This document shows, piece after piece, positions 1,203 to 54,057 of a stretch of DNA of 64,000 bases. The first letter of the stretch is position 1, and every line of letters starts with the position of its first letter. The stretch is from a virus (Duplodnaviria > Heunggongvirae > Uroviricota > Caudoviricetes). The stretch lies in the IMG/VR virus record IMGVR_UViG_2657245091_000008. The stretch is one strand, 5' to 3'. The position numbers were made by a program, and so were the translations under genes. Under the pieces are notes generated by a model, which worked only from the letters and a program-made list of their open reading frames with translations, had not been told where the DNA came from and searched no databases.

Positions 1203-2108
1203 TTAACGTTCTGCTTCACCACCAACGGCCTCCACCAGCGAAGTGAACATCGCGGATAATTCAGCAGTAAACAGGATAAAGTCAGCGTCAAATCGTTGCG
1301 CAACATCCTCTCGATCAATATCGTCGTTCTGGTCGTACAATTCGTCGCTGAACGACAAAGCCTTGATACTCATATCGTCATTCAGTCTGAAAAATGCACG
1401 GTCTTGCCAGTTAACCGCAACTGTGGTTGCAACCTTACCAGCTTCTATATGACTCATGATCTCGTCGGATAGCAGGTCCACTTTTTTGCAGCGGACCGCG
1501 CCGCCATCATCAAGCAATGCTTTTAAGGTCGCTTCCTCACCGGCACGGAAACCGTTCGGGAAGCCATTTTTAATCCAGCCAGTGATGGTCAGTTCTAATG
1601 GGTCTTTCGGAGAGAAGGGGACAACGGGCAAGCTGCCAAGCGATTTCCGTAACAAAGCCAGCTGATCCTCTGCTTTTTTAGCACTGCTGGCCTCGACAAA
1701 AACCAGATGATTGCTTCGGTCTATCAGGATTTTAGCGACTGATTTTCTCGTGAAAGCACGAGGAAGCAGAGAGTGAAGCACTTCATCCTTCAGCGAATCT
1801 TTTTCAGTCTTCTTCAGCTTTCTGTCTTGCTCTTCTTCAAGTGTCAGGATTTTTTTCTGTAACTCTTCTTTGAGCACTTGAGAGGGTAGGATTTTTTCCT
1901 CTCGTTTATGCTGTATCAGAAGAAAACCTTGGTATTCATGGGTGAGGTTGTCGCCAAGAACGGGGGTCCAACCAGCTTTAGCCATATCCTGAGAACCGCA
2001 TGGGGTAAACACAAACTTGCTAAGGGCTGCATTTACTTCTGCAGTATCCCAGCTAACTTCGCGTGAAAGACGATAGATGAAGATATTTTTGAAAGCGACT
2101 GATCTCAT
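1203..2108 (-). CDS. rdgC: Recombination-associated protein RdgC
   Basis: Full-length similarity to E. coli RdgC ([55 protein letters not shown]). Confidence 0.9.
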
Positions 2109-2115
2109 GTCTCAC

Positions 2116-2159
2116 CATTTGTGTTAGAAAATACATATTAATTATCTAACACAAATGGG
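2116..2159. promoter_or_regulatory. Operator-like motif pair (14-bp inverted repeats CCATTTGTGTTAGA / TCTAACACAAATGG) upstream of rdgC
   Basis: Two inverted copies of the recurrent TGTTAGAAAA-type motif. Confidence 0.45.
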
Positions 2160-2167
2160 TGCATTTT

Positions 2168-2821
2168 CTATCCTTTCTTGAAATCGAAGTTGCTAGCAGT
2201 GGCCTGAAAGGTTCCTCCTGCCTTGAAAGCTATGTCTCCGTTAGCGGTGACAGCAATATTTTCCCCTTTAACATTGATGTTGTTGGCTGATTTGACGTTA
2301 ACACTCCCTCCTGCATTCACGATTACATCAGCCGGACCAATGATATATATCTGCCCGGACTCATTCATGCCAATCCTTGAGCCTGCTGCCGTATTGGCAA
2401 TTTCATAGCCGCCACCAGCAGTTCGTACTTCAAGAATATTGTTGCGGTGAATAACGAAGTCTTTCGTTGCTGAGATTTGGGGGCGGGGAGGTGCTCCATC
2501 TACTTCCGGCGGCGTCCAGCCGTTGCCTTTGCCAGATGCTTCTGGTGCAACGTTTGGAATTCCTCCCGGTGCATCCTGAGCGGCACCAACTATCATTGGG
2601 CGTCTGGTGTCTATTCGACCGTTAACATCTAAATAAGGAAACTCTACCCAGACCAGGTCACCTTTGACTGTGGGTACAAAAGCGTTCCCGATGGGTAACT
2701 GGTATTCCGCCCAGGGTAGATCGTCATCAGGAACGCCATTCCAGTCAGGTAAAACACGGACTTGAGCACGCATAAGCCCTGCCGGGTGCACAGTTCCAAC
2801 AATTTGCGCTCTACGCTTCAT
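2168..2821 (-). CDS. Phage baseplate central spike protein (Mu gp45 / P2 gpV-like)
   Basis: N-terminal OB-fold-like pattern (LPWAEYQLPIG...KGDLVWVEFPYLD) followed by Gly/Asn-rich beta-helix-like repeats; last gene of a four-gene operon with overlapping stops. Confidence 0.45.
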   Translation of the reverse strand: MKRRAQIVGTVHPAGLMRAQVRVLPDWNGVPDDDLPWAEYQLPIGNAFVPTVKGDLVWVEFPYLDVNGRIDTRRPMIVGAAQDAPGGIPNVAPEASGKGNGWTPPEVDGAPPRPQISATKDFVIHRNNILEVRTAGGGYEIANTAAGSRIGMNESGQIYIIGPADVIVNAGGSVNVKSANNINVKGENIAVTANGDIAFKAGGTFQATASNFDFKKG

Positions 2822-3798
2822 TTGTTCGGCACTCCCAATATCATTCGTGTTGTGTAGCCTACGCGGTCCTCAAAGTGCGCAACATTTTTTACTATCAGCT
2901 TACGGGGCATTGATTCATCAATGCGGTTTTCCTGGTCATAGCGGTATACGATAATCTCTATTACCATCCCCGGTTTTATATCAGGATTGCCTGCGACTTC
3001 TATATCCATTTTGGGGACGAGAGACAGCTGCATATTGCGAAGAGTTTCCATATCAGAGTCGGATATATAACGCACTGGGAGTGAGCTATCGCCATATTCG
3101 ACGTAGCCATCGGTCATGGAATACCCAACAAAACGATATTGATTCTTTGCTGTTGTCGCATGTTCCTGTTGGAGTAGGCGCATTTTGGACAAAGTGTATT
3201 CTGCTTTAGGGTTATTCCCCTCGTAGGTAAATGATGGCGTTTGCTTCATCAGATCAGCCAGGGTGTAAAAGTTAAATTCCCCCCGGCATACCCAACATAA
3301 TGCACCTTTGTCTCGCGCTATCTCCGAAAGCATTTTTGACGGTTTGTCACCGGCATTCAGATGATATGTAACTGCGCGTTTTAGCACGCTGCTGGTAATT
3401 TTAAGCTTGCCGGAATATGCCTTGAATATAGCGTCTGGTGTTTTGTTGGTATGTAAATTTGTGCGCGGGGAGGGGATCTTAAACCTGCGCACGTCTTCAC
3501 TGACAGCAATAACGGTAACAACATCACCAGCCAGCATTGCAGACGTAACAAAGAAATCTGTTTTAAAAGTGCCTGCATTACCGTTTGGATCGCCCATTTC
3601 AGCCACCAGCGATGCACCGTATTTGGCTTTCCAGTCATCAATTACGGTGCCGGTAGCGTCATGAATTTCCAGTTTTAGCAAAGGGGCTTTGAGGCTGGTT
3701 TTTTCTACATATACTGCGGTAAAAATCCAGTCTCGTGGCACTTTGTTATCGTTAATGAGCACTGACTGTAGAAAATATTGTTGTAACTCCTGGGCCAC
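2818..3798 (-). CDS. Putative baseplate hub-like protein (by position upstream of spike)
   Basis: 326-aa ORF translationally coupled to the spike gene; hub-then-spike order as in Mu 44-45; no motif recognised. Confidence 0.3.
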   Translation of the reverse strand: MAQELQQYFLQSVLINDNKVPRDWIFTAVYVEKTSLKAPLLKLEIHDATGTVIDDWKAKYGASLVAEMGDPNGNAGTFKTDFFVTSAMLAGDVVTVIAVSEDVRRFKIPSPRTNLHTNKTPDAIFKAYSGKLKITSSVLKRAVTYHLNAGDKPSKMLSEIARDKGALCWVCRGEFNFYTLADLMKQTPSFTYEGNNPKAEYTLSKMRLLQQEHATTAKNQYRFVGYSMTDGYVEYGDSSLPVRYISDSDMETLRNMQLSLVPKMDIEVAGNPDIKPGMVIEIIVYRYDQENRIDESMPRKLIVKNVAHFEDRVGYTTRMILGVPNK

Positions 3799-9315: not shown

Positions 9316-9969
9316 TCAAAGTATCACGGTATCTTCATCAACTTCTTTCCCAGCCAGTGACTTTGGCTGGGAGGTGCCTGCTTTAACTTTTTCATGCCCA
9401 ATAATGGAAAGGAACGAAGCGAGTATGCCTGTTTTTTGCTCTTTCTCGACTGTACCGGTCATCTGCTCTACGTAATCCGCACTGGCAACGTTGTGGTATA
9501 CGGTCGCGTAGCAACACAGTATCATCAGAATATGCTCCGGCCTGATATCCTGCCAGTTCACCCTGTAGACTTCTTCTCCGTTACCGTTGTATTCGGTATC
9601 AACGATAGAGTCGGGGATTTCGAAAGCACCTTTGTTATTTTGCGGCAGGGATAATAGCTTCTGGAGTTTTAACTCTCTGTATCTTTCCATCCCGACGATG
9701 ATTGCTGCTCTGCCATCGGCATGACGGGTCTTGAGAGTCACCTGGCTTGCTCCGGTGCCAGCGGAGATCGTTGGCGTAATTTCGTCTACCAGTACCTTAA
9801 ATTTGCTTTTCCGCAGGGCTGCTATAGCTGGAGGAATTTTTTGCTTTTGCTCCAATGCTGACGCGGGAAGGGGTTTTACTTCGTTAATAATGAGAGCGCC
9901 GTCTTTCAGTATTGCAGTGAGCATTTGAGGCTTGCTGGTGGTCAGGCTGAATATTGCGATCTTTTCCAT
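9316..9969 (-). CDS. Hypothetical protein
   Basis: ATG at 9969 (MEKIAIF) preceded by GGAGGAAGG RBS; track ORF extends further to 10011. Confidence 0.5.
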   Translation of the reverse strand: MEKIAIFSLTTSKPQMLTAILKDGALIINEVKPLPASALEQKQKIPPAIAALRKSKFKVLVDEITPTISAGTGASQVTLKTRHADGRAAIIVGMERYRELKLQKLLSLPQNNKGAFEIPDSIVDTEYNGNGEEVYRVNWQDIRPEHILMILCCYATVYHNVASADYVEQMTGTVEKEQKTGILASFLSIIGHEKVKAGTSQPKSLAGKEVDEDTVIL

Positions 9970-10314: not shown

Positions 10315-11157
10315 ATGTTTTTTATAAAAAATGGAAAAAGATGTTCCTCAACAATACTTGCTACTGTTGTTGCTCTCTCTGTTCCCACATTTGCCTTTGC
10401 TTATGATTTTAGCAAAATTGACTGCAATGCCCCTAAAACCAGACAGATGTTAATCGATGATTATAATGAACTGCTGAAGGACGATCAGGAAGCAATCTCT
10501 GTAATTGATGCTTATAATCAGATCAATGAGATAAGAGAAAAAAATAAGCTCCAATGCCTGGGAACGTATGAATTCTCAGATGGAAGTGCGCTTAGGGTTA
10601 GATATAAGTTATATTTAAATAGCCTCGGCACACCCATATATGAATTTGCTCCAGTTGAGGAATTAACGCAAGATGACGTAAGTGCATCTATTCATAATTC
10701 CCCTGCAACTCCTGCAACTACAGCGAGCATGGCTGGACATGATAAAAAAAATAATGGTGAAACGTATGCCTGTAAGGTGGCTGTAACTTACAAGGGGGAG
10801 CGTTCTAACTATATGGGGGATTCCGGAACATGGGATCGTGTGATTACTGACTATGGCACTTATTTTTCATGGGATTTGCCACGCGGGAACCGAGGTAACA
10901 GCACAGGTCAGGATGCTTTTAGTGGCATGGACGAATCAAAGCCTGTATTAGAAAATCAGCTAGTGAGAAAGGAAATTGAAAAAGATGGTAGCGTGGTTGA
11001 TGAGTTTAGGACAGAAGTGAGTTATGGAGACAAACAACCGGTACATAAGTTTGTATATGCCCGTAGAATAAAACCTACAGGAACGAGAGAATATTATGTC
11101 ACTGATTTGACGGACAAGCGGGCATTTATGTTTCTGAATTGCCAGCGAGATTCGTAA
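10315..11157 (+). CDS. Secreted/periplasmic hypothetical protein
   Basis: Signal-peptide-like N-terminus MFFIKNGKRCSSTILATVVALSVPTFAFA from ATG 10315 (GGAG RBS); track ORF starts at 10237; AT-rich. Confidence 0.55.
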   Translation: MFFIKNGKRCSSTILATVVALSVPTFAFAYDFSKIDCNAPKTRQMLIDDYNELLKDDQEAISVIDAYNQINEIREKNKLQCLGTYEFSDGSALRVRYKLYLNSLGTPIYEFAPVEELTQDDVSASIHNSPATPATTASMAGHDKKNNGETYACKVAVTYKGERSNYMGDSGTWDRVITDYGTYFSWDLPRGNRGNSTGQDAFSGMDESKPVLENQLVRKEIEKDGSVVDEFRTEVSYGDKQPVHKFVYARRIKPTGTREYYVTDLTDKRAFMFLNCQRDS

Positions 11158-11717: not shown

Positions 11718-12617
11718 CTAAATCAATAGCATGGATTTTCCCGTCCCGGATGGTGCGCCAGTGCTTTCGTGATCCACCTTCGGGCCATACCATACACCTT
11801 CAGGCCAGGAAGAACGACGACACACTGTTGCGTATCCAGTCCTGATCTTCTCTCTGGCGGTATGTAGTGACAGATTATCCTTTGGGCTTTCAGGCACAGG
11901 ATGGTGGATTGCCTGAAACATCCCCATCTTTGGATGATACCAGCGTTTATTGCGTGGTTCTGCCTCCGACATCACCTGCTTAAAGGCTTTCCGGAAGGGG
12001 GCCAGGGCCACAATGGAGCGTCGCGCAAGCAAACCATCTGGAGTTAAAAACTCATGCGTATCGGTGGGAATCCGGTAAGCGTTGACCAGGTTTCGGCATT
12101 TGGCTTCAGTCAGGCCGCATTTCGCCGCCAGCTGGCGGTAGCCAATGTAGCCTTCCGGCATATTGCCTTTCTTTATTTGCTCGACGGTTTCAGCGACTTT
12201 GGACACTTGTGCCGATACTTCGGCTACCTGGGCATTAACAGCGTTGATCCGGCGTTCATGCTCAAGATGCATTTGCGCCATTTCAGCCAGGATTTCGGCT
12301 TTTGATTTTAACGGTTCCCTGGCATTCTCCAGTTCGCGCCAGCGGTCCACCAGCCGGGCGGTGAATTCCGGAGAGAGCTGTGCGACGACAATGATACTAT
12401 CGCGCTTGCCTTGTTCGCCTTCGAAGACGTAAGCCTCGACACTACGGCGTAGTCCTAAGTTGTTGATTTTTTCGAAAACCTCAATTTGAGGAAACCGGAC
12501 AACGCCACCTTTGGCTAATGTCTCAATAGTGCGTTTCACATTATCATGACGCTTACCCACCAGTTCCGCGATCTCAATACTGGTCATTGTCGCTTTGCGA
12601 GAGATGGGCAGATTCAT
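11718..12617 (-). CDS. Phage antirepressor-like protein (Rha family N-terminus), copy 1, with aberrant C-terminal extension
   Basis: N-terminal TSIEIAELVGKRHDNVKRTIE (Rha-type); about 80 percent identical to 52798-53505 over shared length; reads on about 65 aa past where copy 2 stops; translationally coupled to icd-like gene. Confidence 0.7.
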   Translation of the reverse strand: MNLPISRKATMTSIEIAELVGKRHDNVKRTIETLAKGGVVRFPQIEVFEKINNLGLRRSVEAYVFEGEQGKRDSIIVVAQLSPEFTARLVDRWRELENAREPLKSKAEILAEMAQMHLEHERRINAVNAQVAEVSAQVSKVAETVEQIKKGNMPEGYIGYRQLAAKCGLTEAKCRNLVNAYRIPTDTHEFLTPDGLLARRSIVALAPFRKAFKQVMSEAEPRNKRWYHPKMGMFQAIHHPVPESPKDNLSLHTAREKIRTGYATVCRRSSWPEGVWYGPKVDHESTGAPSGTGKSMLLI

Positions 12618-12832
12618 CAGTGCACCTCCACGCAGTTCATCGGCAGATTCCAGTAATTGAGGATCTCCATCGCATCAAGAGTGAAGCGAGCAGCAAAAAT
12701 GCAGGGTTCTTCGGGAAGGTATGAGCGCGCTTCTGCTTCGGTTGTAGCCATGACGCAGATATACAGGTGTTTTTGGCAGGAATAGAAACGCCAGATAAAT
12801 TCAGAATGAGTTGGGGTAGGGATAGTAGCCAT
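12617..12832 (-). CDS. Icd-like host cell division inhibitor (immI-type), copy 1
   Basis: 71 aa; EFIWRF...TEAEARSYLP pattern; AAGGAGG RBS; ATGA overlap with downstream antirepressor gene as in P1 icd-ant. Confidence 0.55.
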   Translation of the reverse strand: MATIPTPTHSEFIWRFYSCQKHLYICVMATTEAEARSYLPEEPCIFAARFTLDAMEILNYWNLPMNCVEVH

Positions 12833-13017
12833 ATTGGCAGCCTCCTTTTGCTAAGTTAAGGAGCTACCGCGTGAGGTTCCAATCTCAATGGCGGTAGCAC
12901 TGACTGGGTTGGAACTACCGGCGCAAAAGGGAACCGGCCTGCCTTTCGGCAGCCCAGCCAGCACTACCATTGATCTCTGAGCTAAACGCTACGTATGGCT
13001 GTGCGATGGCATGACAC

Positions 13018-13039
13018 AAAAAAAGACGCTTTCGGCGTC
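13018..13039 (-). terminator. Intrinsic terminator (minus strand)
   Basis: On minus strand GACGC-CGAAA-GCGTC followed by TTTTTTT. Confidence 0.5.
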
Positions 13040-13145
13040 TGTGTCGCCTTTTGCATTATCCGGGGTTCCAATCCCGGCACCCGTTTTTCTAAGGTGCCGT
13101 AGAAATATACCCCACGATAATGCCAGGGCGCAACAGTCAGTATTT

Positions 13146-13313
13146 TATGCTTTGGCGGATTTCTTCCGGGCTTGCTTGCAGGCGTAGGCCATTGCTTTAG
13201 CTTTCACTTCATCCAGCTTCCCGGTAATCACTTCTTTTCCGAGAGTGACAAACCAGTCATAGCAACCGCCAGTAATGTTCTTGATTTGAAAGTTGAGGTA
13301 GCGAACAGTCATT
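13146..13313 (-). CDS. Small hypothetical protein (55 aa)
   Basis: ORF MTVRYLNFQIKNITGGCYDWFVTLGKEVITGKLDEVKAKAMAYACKQARKKSAKA with a minus-strand terminator about 100 bp downstream. Confidence 0.3.
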
Positions 13314-13628
13314 TTGACACCCCCAGCGCGAATAAAGAATGCAGATTATCGCGTGAGTGGTGGACGACGAGTGATGGGAAAAGACTGTAGTTGTTCATAG
13401 TGTAGTGACTCCTTGCTTTCGGAGCCGCCATCGACTGTTCCACGGTCTGGTGGCGGCGCAATAAAGGCTGGAACACCGTGAGTCAACGGGGGCTTTTCAG
13501 CCACCTATATTGCACCGCCATAGGTATGGCGGCGGCAATAATACGAAAAACTAAATAGTTTGTCTCAAAAAGTTGACCGGTGTGCCAATCGGTAGTGAAT
13601 GTACATCGGAGAAATTTTCAATTCAACT

Positions 13629-13650
13629 TAAAATGTTAGAAAACTAATTT
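13629..13650. promoter_or_regulatory. Operator-like motif copy
   Basis: AAATGTTAGAAAACTAATTT. Confidence 0.35.
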
Positions 13651-14222
13651 ATCAATTCAATTGCCATCTGATACAACGCCATTTCATCGGCATTGTGCCG
13701 TATGAAATCTGCTTTTCCGCCTATTTTTCCATCAGCATGAACAGGGACCAGCCAGGGATATTGTTCTCGGACCTCGGCTGGCGCTGCGTACTGGTGGTGC
13801 CATTTACACAAAGGGAGGACATATTTATGCGCGTTCTCTGCCGTTCTCCCGAAGATATGGTGCAGGGATACCACTGGGCTATGTTGCCCGTGAATATGGC
13901 AGGCAATGCAGGGGAGAGTACCGATAGCGGTCTGTATCCGGCGTTCATCGGCTGTGAGTGATCTGCCCTTCAGGCCGCGTGACGTGCGTGTTTTTTTGGG
14001 CGGAGCGGATACAGCTTTATCTTTTCTCCGCTGTTCATATTGCTTTGCTTTTTCAATTTTCTTTTGCCGATATTCAGGCGATGCGGCTTTTTCTCTCGCT
14101 CGCTGCTGCTGGCGTTGAGCTTGTTGAAGGCGCTTTGCCCTTTGTTCCTCTCGCCAGGCCGGGTCAGCCAATTTTTGCATGGCCTTTTGTCTCTGTTTCT
14201 CCCAATAACTCTGTTTCTGCAT
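13644..14222 (-). CDS. ref: Ref-like recombination enhancement function protein (HNH endonuclease)
   Basis: 192 aa; basic disordered N-terminal half and HNH-like core CIACHIHGQHSPVVSLHHIFGR...PLCKWHH; size and architecture as P1 Ref; operator-like motif in promoter region. Confidence 0.65.
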   Translation of the reverse strand: MQKQSYWEKQRQKAMQKLADPAWREEQRAKRLQQAQRQQQRAREKAASPEYRQKKIEKAKQYEQRRKDKAVSAPPKKTRTSRGLKGRSLTADERRIQTAIGTLPCIACHIHGQHSPVVSLHHIFGRTAENAHKYVLPLCKWHHQYAAPAEVREQYPWLVPVHADGKIGGKADFIRHNADEMALYQMAIELIN

Positions 14223-40493: not shown

Positions 40494-40580
40494 TGGTGGG
40501 GAGTGATGGAGTCGAACCACCCGAGTCGCAATGACAGTAGATTTACAGTCTACCCCGCTACCCCTACGGACTAACTCCCC
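40494..40580 (-). tRNA. tRNA-Tyr-like (anticodon GUA), type II with atypical D-arm
   Basis: Acceptor GGGGAGT/ACTCCCC+ACCA, anticodon arm GTAGACTGTAAATCTAC, long variable arm, T-loop GGTTCGACTCC. Confidence 0.55.
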
Positions 40581-52600: not shown

Positions 52601-52801
52601 TCAAGTCACGATCCAATCATTACCGACTATATCAGCCGTCGATAAATCAACTTCCCGGATCTGGAGTCCATTAATACAAAACCATCCGGTAGTAGAGTAA
52701 TTATCAGGCCAGGCCCATACACCAACACTCCATGCTTTACGGCGGCACACTTCAGCCTGTCCTTCCCTGATTTTTTTTACCGCCTGCATGATGTCCATCA
52801 C
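52601..52801 (-). CDS. Small DUF2829-like protein downstream of antirepressor copy 2
   Basis: 66 aa; VKKIREGQAEVCRRKAWSVGVW...ADIVGNDWIVT fits the DUF2829 pattern; terminator follows. Confidence 0.4.
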   Translation of the reverse strand: MMDIMQAVKKIREGQAEVCRRKAWSVGVWAWPDNYSTTGWFCINGLQIREVDLSTADIVGNDWIVT

Positions 52802-53505
52802 TCACCTCCCCAACCGATCACCTGGAATTGCCCCATTTTGGGGTGATACCAGCGTTTTCCTCGGTGTTCAGCCTCCGACATCATCCGGTTAAAAGCATTC
52901 ATGAAGGGATATAAGGCCACGATGGAACGACGCGACAATACCCCCTCTGGAGTTAAAAACTCATGCGTATCGGTGGGAATCCGGTAAGCGTTGACAAGGT
53001 TGCGGCATTTGGCTTCAGTCAGGCCACATTTCGCCGCCAGCTGGCGGTAGCCAATGTAGCCTTCCGGAATATTGCCTTTCTTTATTTGCTCGACGGTTTC
53101 AGCGACCTGGCTAACCTTTGACTCAACAGCATGAATCCGCTTTTGCTGCTGAACTGCATTCGCAGCCATTGCAGCGATCATCTCTATTTCGGTCAACGGC
53201 TGGCGTACTTGTTCTTCCAGTTCGCGCCAGCGGTCCACCAGCCGGGCGGTGAATTCGGGAGAGAGCTGCGCGACGACAATGATGCTGTCTCGTTTGCCTT
53301 GCTCGCCTTCGAAGACGTAAGCCTCAACGCCACGACGCAATCCTAAGTTATTGATTTTTTCGAAAACAGCCATTGGCGGTTTTCGGATAATGCTTCGAGC
53401 AACCATACGCTCAATACTACGTTTAACGTCAGAGTGTTGGCTTCCCACCAGCTCCGCAATCTCAATGCTGGTCATTGATAGTTTTTCGAGAATGCAGATA
53501 CCCAT
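52798..53505 (-). CDS. Phage antirepressor-like protein (Rha family N-terminus), copy 2
   Basis: MTSIEIAELVGSQHSDVKRSIE; paralog of 11718-12617; ATGA coupling with icd-like gene. Confidence 0.7.
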   Translation of the reverse strand: MGICILEKLSMTSIEIAELVGSQHSDVKRSIERMVARSIIRKPPMAVFEKINNLGLRRGVEAYVFEGEQGKRDSIIVVAQLSPEFTARLVDRWRELEEQVRQPLTEIEMIAAMAANAVQQQKRIHAVESKVSQVAETVEQIKKGNIPEGYIGYRQLAAKCGLTEAKCRNLVNAYRIPTDTHEFLTPEGVLSRRSIVALYPFMNAFNRMMSEAEHRGKRWYHPKMGQFQVIGWGGE

Positions 53506-53729
53506 CAGTGAGCCTCCGCAATGCCGGGATTGGTAATATTGCGATACCAGGGATTAGTGTTTGGTTGTGGGGAAGTAGAGAAACGACCAGTAAGAACACC
53601 ATGCTGATCAGGGATCAGAGAACGGGCTTCTTTTTCGGTTGCGGCAATTGCGAAGTGATCGCAGCGTTTTTGCAGGGAGTGGAAACGCCAGATGAATTCT
53701 GGACGTGAACAAGGATTGGCATTAACCAT
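53505..53729 (-). CDS. Icd-like host cell division inhibitor, copy 2
   Basis: 74 aa; EFIWRFHSLQK...TEKEARSLIP paralog of 12617-12832. Confidence 0.55.
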   Translation of the reverse strand: MVNANPCSRPEFIWRFHSLQKRCDHFAIAATEKEARSLIPDQHGVLTGRFSTSPQPNTNPWYRNITNPGIAEAH

Positions 53730-54057
53730 AGTTACGGCCTCACTAACAGGTTTAACAACCTGCCACCCGCTGTCAAACAGGTGGCAGGACGTGACAGGGT
53801 TGACAGACTGGCGTTAGTGAAACCAGCAGGCCGAAGCCTCCCCATCACGCCCCACCATAATTCGGGCGTAACGCGGTTTACGGACACAAAAATACCGCAA
53901 TATCGGAAATCTGCGGTTGTCCGCACTAACATTCAGGCTGTCAAACCCGGTCGCAGAATTTGCTACGACGGCATGAATATAAGCCTGAAAACATGGAAGA
54001 TCAACTAAAAATTTCAGCAATGGATGACTTCAGTCGATGATGCAGATCATACATTCC

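Follow-up and report, generated by a model that had tools for sequence, protein, structure and literature searches.

C4-type antisense RNA modules upstream of two icd-like genes in a D6-like plasmid prophage

Organization of the copy 1 locus

The window analyzed here, a single stretch of 64 kb, is a D6-like plasmid prophage of the P1 type. It carries two icd-like genes, and an initial annotation had proposed a C4-like antisense RNA in the leader upstream of the first of these (copy 1), with a possible second one at 53730-54000 upstream of the other (copy 2). The Infernal/Rfam scan with the C4 model that it had suggested was positive at both places, with matches of 76.7 bits at 12887-12974 (-) and 68.8 bits at 53777-53862 (-). 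The functional unit of copy 1 was found to reach past the interval first proposed (12833-13017), as far as approximately 13133. Its features are given below, from 5' to 3' on the minus strand.

13128-13133 (-): predicted promoter -35, TTGCGC, from alignment to P1 and other loci
13104-13109 (-): predicted promoter -10, TATATT, aligned with the annotated -10 of P1, TATAGT
13019-13097 (-): leader element of the IsrK / P4 seqA type, with two hairpins, a linker and a terminator (Rfam isrK, RF01394)
13065-13071 (-): a1, UUGGAAC, in the loop of hairpin 13060-13077, perfect complement of a'
13047-13054 (-): b1, GCAAAAGG, perfect complement of b'
13018-13040 (-): intrinsic terminator of the leader, AGACGC-CGAAA-GCGUCU followed by U7, from a terminator scan; 3' hairpin of the isrK model
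12887-12974 (-): C4 antisense RNA copy 1, Rfam span (RF01695)
12890-12968 (-): predicted mature C4, 79 nt, with ends set by analogy to P1
12923-12930 (-): b', CCUUUUGC, in the 12-nt loop of C4 hairpin 2
12909-12915 (-): a', GUUCCAA, single-stranded, at the joint that links hairpin 2 to the basal stem
12876-12882 (-): a2, UUGGAAC, 7/7 complement of a'
12863-12870 (-): segment GCGGUAGC of the leader, a complement of the basal-stem 3' arm of C4 (12891-12898)
12844-12851 (-): b2, GCAAAAGG, 8/8 complement of b', overlapping the icd Shine-Dalgarno sequence
12841-12846 (-): icd Shine-Dalgarno sequence, AGGAGG, overlapped by b2
12617-12832 (-): icd-like gene copy 1, 71 aa (NCBIfam NF033153 phage_ICD_like, E = 2.8e-13; PHROG 1426, E = 1e-40)
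11718-12617 (-): Rha/Roi-family anti-repressor candidate copy 1, 299 aa (Pfam Phage_pRha, E = 1e-8; PHROG 63 'anti-repressor Ant', E = 3e-45)

The Icd-like open reading frames were identified using NCBIfam and PHROGs, while a Pfam search of these frames gave no match at E <= 0.01. The protein encoded downstream is a candidate anti-repressor on the strength of its family labels, and at both loci its start codon overlaps the stop codon of icd (UGAUG).

The C4 RNA and its recognition segments

The match of copy 1 to the Rfam C4 family extends over model positions 1-87 of 87 with an E value of 3e-13, its 76.7 bits comparing with a gathering score of 45. The 79-nt core was predicted to fold at -46.6 kcal/mol, against -28.7 +/- 3.4 kcal/mol for shuffled sequences (z = -5.3), with 0 of 200 shuffles being as stable. 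The C4 form is that of a long basal stem enclosing two hairpins, and the predicted fold agrees with the model at both copies.

Both recognition segments of the copy 1 RNA, a' (7 nt) and b' (8 nt), have perfect complements on the upstream and on the downstream side. Shuffling the C4 sequence 20000 times never gave both target complements in both flanks. Apart from the two predicted b sites, the minus strand of the 64-kb window has no occurrence of GCAAAAGG. Complementarity between leader segments and the icd ribosome-binding region, a check that had also been proposed, was likewise found, with b' perfectly complementary to the GCAAAAGG that overlaps the icd Shine-Dalgarno sequence. The AGGAGG concerned stands 7 nt before the icd AUG. 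With regard to the hairpins named in the initial annotation, CTGCC-TTTC-GGCAG is present at 12939-12952 (+). The sequences GGTTCCAA (12875-12882, +) and TTGGAACT (12909-12916, +), which had been put forward as the two arms of another, are both present but do not make up a structural hairpin; they correspond to the downstream target a2 and the antisense segment a', respectively.

At the 5' end of C4, an invariant A-U is found just before the G-G with which mature P1 c4 starts, and at the 3' end there is a 3-nt overhang beyond the stem, both of which are consistent with processing. RNase P processing of the C4 precursor is listed in PMC11143913, the 5' end in P1/P7 being made by this enzyme, and by analogy the copy 1 C4 would be excised from a longer precursor. 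On the 3' side of C4, segment GCGGUAGC can form a helix that is an alternative to the C4 basal stem and mutually exclusive with it, and which across 12 loci is 96.9% paired, with 5/8 pairs changed on both sides. A stretch overlapping this segment, GGUAGCUCCUU (12858-12868), is predicted to pair instead with the Shine-Dalgarno region once the leader has been processed.

Promoter and leader of copy 1

Upstream of the copy 1 leader a generic consensus scan gave no promoter call, and the promoter was placed by alignment to the annotated P51b of P1 and 15 other loci. The position of its -35 matches that of the annotated P1c4/P51b promoter of P1 and of the other 15 aligned loci, across which the -35 pattern is TTGNNN with a spacer of 17-18 nt, and the TAnnnT pattern of the -10 is invariant in all loci. 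Transcription of copy 1 is expected to start near 13097. The -35 hexamer TTGCGC is itself a weak one.

The leader gave a full-length match to isrK of 62.5 bits (gathering score 50), with an overlapping match to c4-a1b1 (RF03163) of only 22.4 bits, below the gathering score of 46.7. It is the same kind of element as c4-a1b1, but one that falls under the isrK model. An isrK element was found directly upstream of C4 in all 11 copy 1 relatives that were fetched, P4 among them. The minus-strand terminator reported in the initial annotation is real, at 13018-13040, but the role of upstream insulator assigned to it does not hold, as it sits inside the transcribed leader, 3' of the promoter. It lies between the a1/b1 sites and C4, is the positional counterpart of the IsrK terminator and has a predicted stem probability of 0.8-1.0.

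The copy 2 module

The second locus is organized as follows.

53976-54004 (-): promoter, -35 TTGATC (53999-54004) and -10 TATATT (53976-53981), homologous to P1 P51b
53887-53982 (-): leader, c4-a1b1 element plus terminator-like hairpin
53930-53982 (-): c4-a1b1 element (RF03163, 55.2 bits)
53938-53944 (-): a1, UUGACAG
53924-53930 (-): b1, GUUAGUG
53887-53916 (-): terminator-like hairpin and U run
53777-53862 (-): C4 antisense RNA copy 2 (RF01695, 68.8 bits)
53780-53856 (-): mature C4, 77 nt, 77/77 identical to the annotated P1 c4
53813-53820 (-): b', UCACUAAC
53800-53806 (-): a', CUGUCAA
53770-53776 (-): a2, identical to the feature of the P1 record
53740-53747 (-): b2, identical to the feature of the P1 record, adjoining the icd ribosome-binding site
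53505-53729 (-): icd-like gene copy 2, 74 aa (NF033153, E = 1e-9)
52798-53505 (-): Rha-type anti-repressor candidate copy 2, 235 aa (PHROG 63, E = 5e-45), with stop/start overlap with icd

Copy 2 is a module of P1 specificity. Its leader scored 44.5 bits against isrK over 53888-53969, under the cut-off of 50, and the fold of its C4 has a z score of -4.6. Between the two copies the Icd-like proteins share 41% identity and the anti-repressor candidates 71%. The recognition code of copy 1 differs from that of copy 2, and orthogonal, mutually independent action is predicted for the two modules. Non-cognate antisense/target pairs match at 4-5 of 7-8 positions, which is fewer than for P1 versus P7 (5+1 of 7; 6/8). 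These counts of complementarity at the a and b sites were used in place of full-length RNAduplex energies of the C4s with the leaders, which gave no discrimination because intramolecular structure is ignored.

Co-variation of the antisense segments and their targets

Co-variation was counted on 12 isrK-type loci, the P1-type loci being left out because a2 is misaligned in a mixed alignment. The three internal helices of C4, comprising 27 pairs, are 100% paired across these loci and 11/27 pairs are changed on both sides. The helices formed by a' with a2 and by b' with b2 are also 100% paired, with 5/7 and 7/8 pairs, respectively, changed on both sides. Over all of these helices 23/42 pairs are changed on both sides, a result matched by 0 of 500 shuffles, and slid controls were 28-48% paired. 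On the leader side, a1 with a' is 97.6% paired (5/7 pairs changed on both sides) and b1 with b' 95.8% (6/8), or 96.6% for the two combined.

The targets also follow in a wider sample of 77 distinct IMG/VR sequences, in which 19 a' alleles and 22 b' alleles occur in 50 a'/b' combinations. Pairing of a' with a2 is perfect in 64 of the 77, and a1 is perfect in 71.

Proposed mode of action

From these results we consider, with a probability of about 0.9, that 12833-13017 forms the central part of a full C4-type antisense-RNA immunity module, of the class of phage P1 immI and phage P4 CI, and that there are two of these modules in the window. By analogy with the systems already described, both would be transcribed and processed and would confer repression and immunity, the sources for the C4 mechanism being the annotations of the P1 record and PMC8198154.

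In copy 1, the promoter at ~13104-13133 (-) would drive a transcript consisting, in order, of the leader, C4, a2/b2, the icd-like gene and the anti-repressor gene. The leader, of the IsrK/seqA type, would hold the decoy sites a1 and b1 together with the intrinsic terminator. Read-through past this terminator would be followed by processing and release of C4, whose exposed a' (GUUCCAA) and b' (CCUUUUGC) would then pair with a2 and b2 on the icd-ant mRNA. This pairing would keep the ribosome off icd and, through translational coupling and polarity, would prevent synthesis of the anti-repressor. The prophage would in this way stay repressed, and an incoming phage of the same specificity would presumably be held in check. 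By also pairing with the leader sites a1 and b1, C4 probably exerts feedback on its own synthesis.

Alternative explanations

One alternative concerns the mode of action of copy 1 and not its identity, and is compatible with a translational block. It holds that the module is mainly P4-like, with C4 pairing with the nascent leader (a1/b1, akin to seqA) and with a2/b2 (akin to seqC) to bring about premature transcription termination, including at 13018-13040. The CI RNA of P4 pairs with seqA and seqC to cause termination, and IsrK is a structural homolog of SeqA (PMC4825925). The isrK model that matches the copy 1 leader also matches upstream of the P4 C4, and an intrinsic terminator directly follows b1. 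Furthermore, the copy 1 C4 is closer to P4 CI (64/88 identical) and to phiP27 (68/88) than to P1 c4 (53/88), and P4-style termination may therefore matter as much as a P1-style block. However, b2 lies exactly on the icd Shine-Dalgarno sequence and, as in P1, icd and the gene that follows it are coupled. In addition, when b1 was blocked in silico as a test for an anti-terminator switch, the predicted terminator-stem probability moved only from ~0.8 to 1.0, folding giving no clear sign of such a switch. A mainly P4-like mode is possible, although we lean against it.

It is rather unlikely, but conceivable, that the short terminated leader RNA (~80 nt, 13097-13019) is a trans-acting regulator like IsrK of Gifsy-1, in which case it could, by means of a1 and b1, bind either C4 or the transcript that reads through, and counteract C4 by turning on synthesis of the anti-repressor. 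The leader is a full-length match to isrK that ends in the terminator, and its a1 and b1 not only are perfect complements of a' and b' but also co-vary with them. In Gifsy-1, IsrK acting in trans raised anrP translation >100-fold, and an ~80-nt RNA with complementarity to IsrK is processed from the stretch 3' of it (STnc1160; PMC4825925). However, accumulation of the short isrK RNA, its binding to Hfq and trans activation of downstream translation are known for Gifsy-1 only, and accumulation or trans action of the copy 1 leader would be by analogy with that locus. The wiring also differs, the Gifsy-1 locus having no icd and being coupled via 'orf45'.

That the stretch encodes a small protein and not an RNA is hardly credible. 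The candidate is a 39-aa 'ash family protein', a PGAP call corresponding to 12851-12970 (-) and the counterpart of Gifsy-1 orf45, which is annotated as a CDS in near-identical plasmids and whose translation matches PHROG families labeled repressors or regulators (E = 1e-8). A frame from an invariant AUG (C4 positions 5-7) continues in frame into the downstream gene in 46/65 loci, and tagged orf45 is translated in Gifsy-1. Against this, the frame in the window ends 19 nt before icd, an NCBIfam search gave no match at E <= 0.01, and the invariant A-U-G-G also fits the mapped 5' end of P1 c4. No coding signature was seen, variability per codon position being flat (5.31, 5.75 and 5.93) and amino-acid identity (0.58) lower than nucleotide identity (0.73), while all helices of the RNA model are 100% paired with compensatory changes. 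As the sole function of the stretch, a small protein is contradicted by this RNA co-variation.

Finally, the notion that the hairpins arose by chance as inverted repeats, or are relics of a decayed element without function, found nothing in its favor and can be dismissed, given the covariance-model E value of 3e-13, the fold z score of -5.3 and the co-variation of the helices, along with a perfect a or b site at each of the four positions where one is expected, at least 99% identity in 27 plasmid records (with matches in 437) and intact downstream open reading frames.

Building on the identification of two C4 modules, a wider joint reading can be put forward, though as a speculation that we think improbable as a whole. 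There would be two orthogonal antisense 'locks', a C4 with the P1 code and a C4 of the P4/lambdoid type, each guarding one of the two Rha-type anti-repressors, which are 71% identical. Close relatives would come to differ in recognition code through concerted change at three sites (a1, a' and a2, or b1, b' and b2), with mixing of a and b alleles giving new immunity specificities. The short terminated IsrK-like RNA would act in trans as a C4 sponge, setting the threshold for induction. In the literature searched, there was no statement that IsrK, the a1/b1 element of P1 and seqA of P4 are one class of element, nor that what has been named 'ash family protein' and 'orf45' is the C4 RNA gene in translation.

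Implications

The C4 system is already known and Rfam families exist for it, and two c4-icd regions have already been noted in a D6-like plasmid in a 2019 paper. Current understanding of the system is unchanged by the present results. For the window, their main outcome is a correction of annotation, with two C4 RNA genes, each with its leader and target sites, to be annotated. In the public records of close relatives there is either nothing at the C4 site or the 39-aa 'ash family protein' CDS. It is also possible to assign immunity specificities, namely the P1 code to copy 2 and GUUCCAA/CCUUUUGC to copy 1, and these assignments predict which P1-like, D6-like or lambdoid phages would be cross-repressed. 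The 50 matched a'/b' combinations represent a resource for orthogonal RNA repressors or for the study of how phage immunity diversifies.

Comparison with known systems

Compared with immI of P1/P7, copy 2 has the mature C4 of P1 and the same a1, b1, a2 and b2 sites. Copy 1 is alike in layout, with a promoter, a1/b1, a hairpin and U run, C4, a2, b2 over the icd ribosome-binding site and a coupled icd, and alike in the lengths of its recognition segments (7 and 8 nt). It differs from P1 in the sequence of its C4, with a' and b' sequences of its own, and in having a leader that scores as isrK instead of c4-a1b1. The Op51-type C1 operator, which in P1 immI overlaps the promoter upstream of c4, was not found, a search of the whole window for the P1-type C1 operator ATTGCTCTAATAAATTT with <=3 mismatches giving no match, and control by the primary repressor can therefore not be assumed. 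The similarity of the window to P1 starts only at the -10 region. The Rha/Roi-type (Phage_pRha) proteins of the window also have no significant similarity to the first 198 residues of P1 Ant1 (BLASTP E = 2.0). The position of repL, upstream of copy 2 in both the window and D6, is unlike that in P1, where it lies downstream.

The Rfam C4 and isrK models match P4 as well, in the same order. Complements of a' and b' are likewise present on both sides of the P4 RNA, and a U-rich terminator follows the upstream sites. The spacer between leader and CI is ~85 nt longer in P4 than here, and the genes controlled are those for replication and derepression, not icd and an anti-repressor. The mechanism in P4 is described as transcription termination, whereas in copy 1 b2 lies on the Shine-Dalgarno sequence.

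In the isrK-orf45 (STnc1160)-anrP region of Gifsy-1 (RF01394), the likeness by description extends beyond the leader with its terminator to a structured RNA of ~80 nt to which the leader is complementary, followed by a gene of the anti-repressor type. Copy 1 differs in having a separate icd-like gene between C4 and the anti-repressor gene, and in its orf45-like frame being closed 19 nt before icd.

The closest relative is Escherichia phage D6, which, with D6-like plasmid prophages such as pYU39_89, shares ~93.5% DNA identity with the window at both loci and has the same gene order. The GenBank record of D6 has no c4 RNA annotated at either locus. The recognition sites have changed in concert between the window and D6, in copy 1 within the a series (a', a1 and a2) and in copy 2 within the b series (b', b1 and b2). 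D6 has a' GUCUCAA where copy 1 of the window has GUUCCAA, and the a1 and a2 of D6 match its own a'. At copy 2, D6 has b' CGUAAGU in place of the CACUAAC that the window shares with P1, and both copies of the target are changed to match.

Identification of two C4 RNAs

The whole window was scanned against Rfam at the curated thresholds, which gave eight matches.

Rfam matches in the window (all minus strand)
12887–12974, C4 antisense RNA of copy 1 (RF01695), 76.7 bits (cut-off 45), E = 3e-13, full model length
53777–53862, C4 antisense RNA of copy 2 (RF01695), 68.8 bits
13019–13097, isrK leader (RF01394), 62.5 bits (cut-off 50), immediately 5′ of the copy 1 C4
53930–53982, c4-a1b1 leader (RF03163), 55.2 bits (cut-off 46.7), immediately 5′ of the copy 2 C4
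39179–40662, four clustered tRNA genes, three at 68–72 bits

The candidate C4 antisense RNA of the initial annotation is thereby borne out at both loci, and its interpretation of these leaders is supported. The predicted cores of 79 nt (copy 1) and 77 nt (copy 2) fold as in the C4 model, with two hairpins within a long basal stem (z-scores −5.3 and −4.6, respectively; no shuffle was as stable). The stem-loop CTGCC-TTTC-GGCAG, noted earlier as one of several stable hairpins, lies at 12939–12952 and is hairpin 1 of C4. The weakest of the tRNAs (40497–40580, 84 nt) scored only 41.9 bits.

In a permissive scan, c4-a1b1 scored 22.4 bits within the copy 1 isrK match and isrK scored 44.5 bits across the copy 2 c4-a1b1 match. 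The two models overlap at 13019–13110 and 53888–53982 (−), one being sub-threshold wherever the other passes, so that both leaders represent one type of element split over two Rfam families. C4 and c4-a1b1 share clan CL00128, while isrK is listed without a clan in the scan output.

Anatomy of the modules

All elements of interest at the flagged stretch read on the minus strand. They include the exposed antisense segments of C4 (a′, b′), the upstream leader sites (a1, b1) and the downstream target sites (a2, b2). Promoters were placed from an alignment of 16 loci, at the position of the annotated P1c4 promoter of P1; conserved among these are TTGNNN, a 17–18 nt spacer and a TAnnnT hexamer.

Elements of the C4-icd modules (all minus strand)
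13128–13133 and 13104–13109, predicted copy 1 promoter, −35 TTGCGC and −10 TATATT
13065–13071, a1, UUGGAAC, within a hairpin loop
13047–13054, b1, GCAAAAGG
13018–13040, intrinsic terminator, AGACGC-CGAAA-GCGUCU followed by seven U
12923–12930, b′, CCUUUUGC, loop of C4 hairpin 2
12909–12915, a′, GUUCCAA, single-stranded joint of C4
12876–12882, a2, UUGGAAC
12844–12851, b2, GCAAAAGG, overlapping the AGGAGG Shine-Dalgarno (12841–12846)
12617–12832, icd-like ORF, AUG at 12832
11718–12617, 299-aa ORF, start codon overlapping the icd stop
53999–54004 and 53976–53981, predicted copy 2 promoter, −35 and −10

Sites b1 and b2 are the sole occurrences of GCAAAAGG on the minus strand of the 64-kb window, and none of 20,000 shuffles of the C4 sequence had both complements in both flanks. 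Complementarity between a leader segment and the icd ribosome-binding region, which the initial annotation had suggested looking for, was found in the pairing of b′ with b2. The segments GGTTCCAA (12875–12882, +) and TTGGAACT (12909–12916, +) are present as described, but site mapping shows that the hairpin they were thought to form is the a′/a2 antisense-target pair. The minus-strand terminator is likewise real; the role of upstream insulator given to it does not hold, since the predicted promoter maps upstream and the terminator thus lies within the transcribed leader. This layout predicts that expression of C4, icd and the anti-repressor gene depends wholly on transcripts that read past the leader terminator. 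The IsrK promoter and terminator of Gifsy-1 have been described with the same read-through arrangement (PMC4825925).

Co-variation and alleles

Beside D6, ten relatives of copy 1 were compared (JL22, RCS47, six Stx or other lambdoid phages, phiP27 and P4), and in all of them C4 is directly preceded by a leader of the isrK type. Co-variation was counted on an alignment of 12 isrK-type loci. Pairing was complete (100% over 504 cells) for the three C4 helices together with a′·a2 and b′·b2, with double-sided changes in 23 of 42 pairs, a level reached by none of 500 shuffles; slid controls were 28–48% paired. The upstream pairings a1·a′ and b1·b′ were jointly 96.6% paired, 11 of 15 pairs varying on both sides. 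A search of viral contigs for the invariant C4 scaffold, in which a′ and b′ could be any sequence, yielded 77 distinct sequences with 19 a′ alleles and 22 b′ alleles in 50 combinations. Pairing at a fixed offset was perfect for a′·a2 in 64 and for b′·b2 in 59 of the 77, and a1 was perfect in 71. Taken together, these comparisons are strong evidence for functional complementarities.

The 3′ arm of the C4 basal stem (12891–12898) can also pair with a segment of the leader that lies between a2 and b2 (12863–12870, −), which gives a third co-varying helix; this helix is 96.9% paired, with both-sided change in five of eight pairs (12 loci), and it and the basal stem are mutually exclusive. Its copy 2 counterpart is CCUGCCACC with 53759–53767. 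In the predicted fold of the processed leader, 12858–12868, which overlaps this segment, pairs instead with the Shine-Dalgarno region. The third helix may be a switch within the precursor.

Downstream proteins and the 39-aa ORF

The small ORF of each copy is Icd-like by NCBIfam NF033153 (E = 2.8e-13 for copy 1 and 9.7e-10 for copy 2), and the two share 41% identity. The candidate anti-repressors downstream share 71% identity; both possess a Phage_pRha domain and match PHROG 63 'anti-repressor Ant' at E about 1e-45. Compared with residues 1–198 of P1 Ant1, neither shows significant similarity.

In near-identical plasmids a PGAP CDS for a 39-aa 'ash family protein' (12851–12970, −) exactly covers C4 and a2. 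Its frame begins at an invariant AUG in the C4 stem (C4 positions 5–7), is unusually open (81 loci) and, among the 65 loci having a recognised downstream start, continues in frame as far as the downstream gene in 46; its translation matches PHROG families labelled repressors or regulators. No coding signature was found in this frame, variability being flat by codon position, and identity is lower for amino acids (0.58) than for nucleotides (0.73). What PGAP calls a protein here is probably an RNA gene, as for 'orf45' of Gifsy-1, a stretch which yields a processed RNA of about 80 nt (PMC4825925).

Relatives and specificity

Escherichia phage D6, a P1-like plasmid prophage, is about 93.5% identical at both loci and has its genes in the same order: Ref-like nuclease, small ORFs, icd and anti-repressor candidate at copy 1, and repL, icd, anti-repressor candidate, peptidoglycan hydrolase and darB at copy 2. 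The D6 record annotates icd and anti-repressor at both loci and c4 RNA at neither. An immI-like region with c4, icd and anti-repressor homologues has already been reported in a D6-like Salmonella plasmid (2019 paper). Matches to the 341-nt leader of copy 1 occur in 437 plasmid records, 27 of the matches at ≥99% identity; these plasmids are mostly non-mobilizable, of E. coli and ~90 kb. The element is already known, since the family is well described, a standard Rfam scan finds C4, many sequenced plasmids hold near-identical copies and the duplication is published. What remains of value is the annotation and the catalogue of matched antisense/target alleles.

The P1-group phages JL22 and RCS47 carry a copy-1-type module between pacB and c1 (about 1545–3140), comprising isrK leader, C4, icd-like ORF and Roi/Ant gene and unannotated as RNA in either record; some Punavirus genomes therefore hold a second C4 module. 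An IMG/VR contig (UViG_2671181028_000005) has two C4 scaffolds on one strand, separated by ~1.3 kb (9726–9792 and 11038–11104), so tandem or duplicated C4 modules exist beyond D6-like elements. In two Stx-type phages, sRNA-Xcc1 (RF02221, 79.6 bits) matches strongly just 3′ of the Rha-type regulator gene located after C4 (L007, 2244–2327; L010, 2215–2298). In the window, ~330 nt (13313–13643, −) separate the Ref-like nuclease gene (13644–14222) from a 55-aa ORF (13145–13312); this stretch has GC-rich inverted repeats, a terminator-like site (13575–13590) and no Rfam match, and its D6 counterpart holds only a small ORF (orf86).

Window and D6, 93–97% identical around a′ of copy 1 and b′ of copy 2, differ precisely in the recognition bases of both modules. 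The a′ of copy 1 is GUUCCAA in the window and GUCUCAA in D6, and the b′ of copy 2 (53813–53820) is CACUAAC, the P1 code, as against CGUAAGU in D6; in each case both target copies are altered to match. Judged from sequence, the pair offers a clear-cut case of immunity-specificity replacement among close relatives. Within the window, copies 1 and 2 match each other's targets at only 4–5 of 7–8 positions, below the P1/P7 pair (5+1 of 7 and 6 of 8), and on this basis the two modules are predicted to act independently of each other. P1 and P7 were reportedly found to be heteroimmune at immI by Citron and Schuster in 1990.

Comparison with P1, P4 and Gifsy-1

The P1 record gives the order C1 operator, promoters P2c4 and P1c4 (formerly P51a and P51b), a1, b1, the 77-nt C4, a2, b2, icd and ant1/2; no P1-type C1 operator was found in the window at ≤3 mismatches. 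Copy 2 has a mature C4 identical to P1 c4 at 77/77 positions and the same a1, b1, a2 and b2, whereas copy 1 shares the plan with differing sequences. In P1, full repression of ant requires C4 (PMC8198154), a2 and b2 being described in the record as sites of C4 repression of icd/ant translation, and the C4 precursor is listed among the substrates of RNase P (PMC11143913). By analogy, C4 would be released from read-through transcripts and mask the icd ribosome-binding site, silencing icd together with the anti-repressor gene coupled to it, and its pairing with a1/b1 would provide feedback on its own synthesis. The CI RNA of P4 pairs with seqA and seqC to give termination, and IsrK of Gifsy-1 has been termed a structural homologue of SeqA (PMC4825925). 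As the copy 1 C4 is nearer to P4 CI (64/88) than to P1 c4 (53/88), a termination component in its action is plausible.
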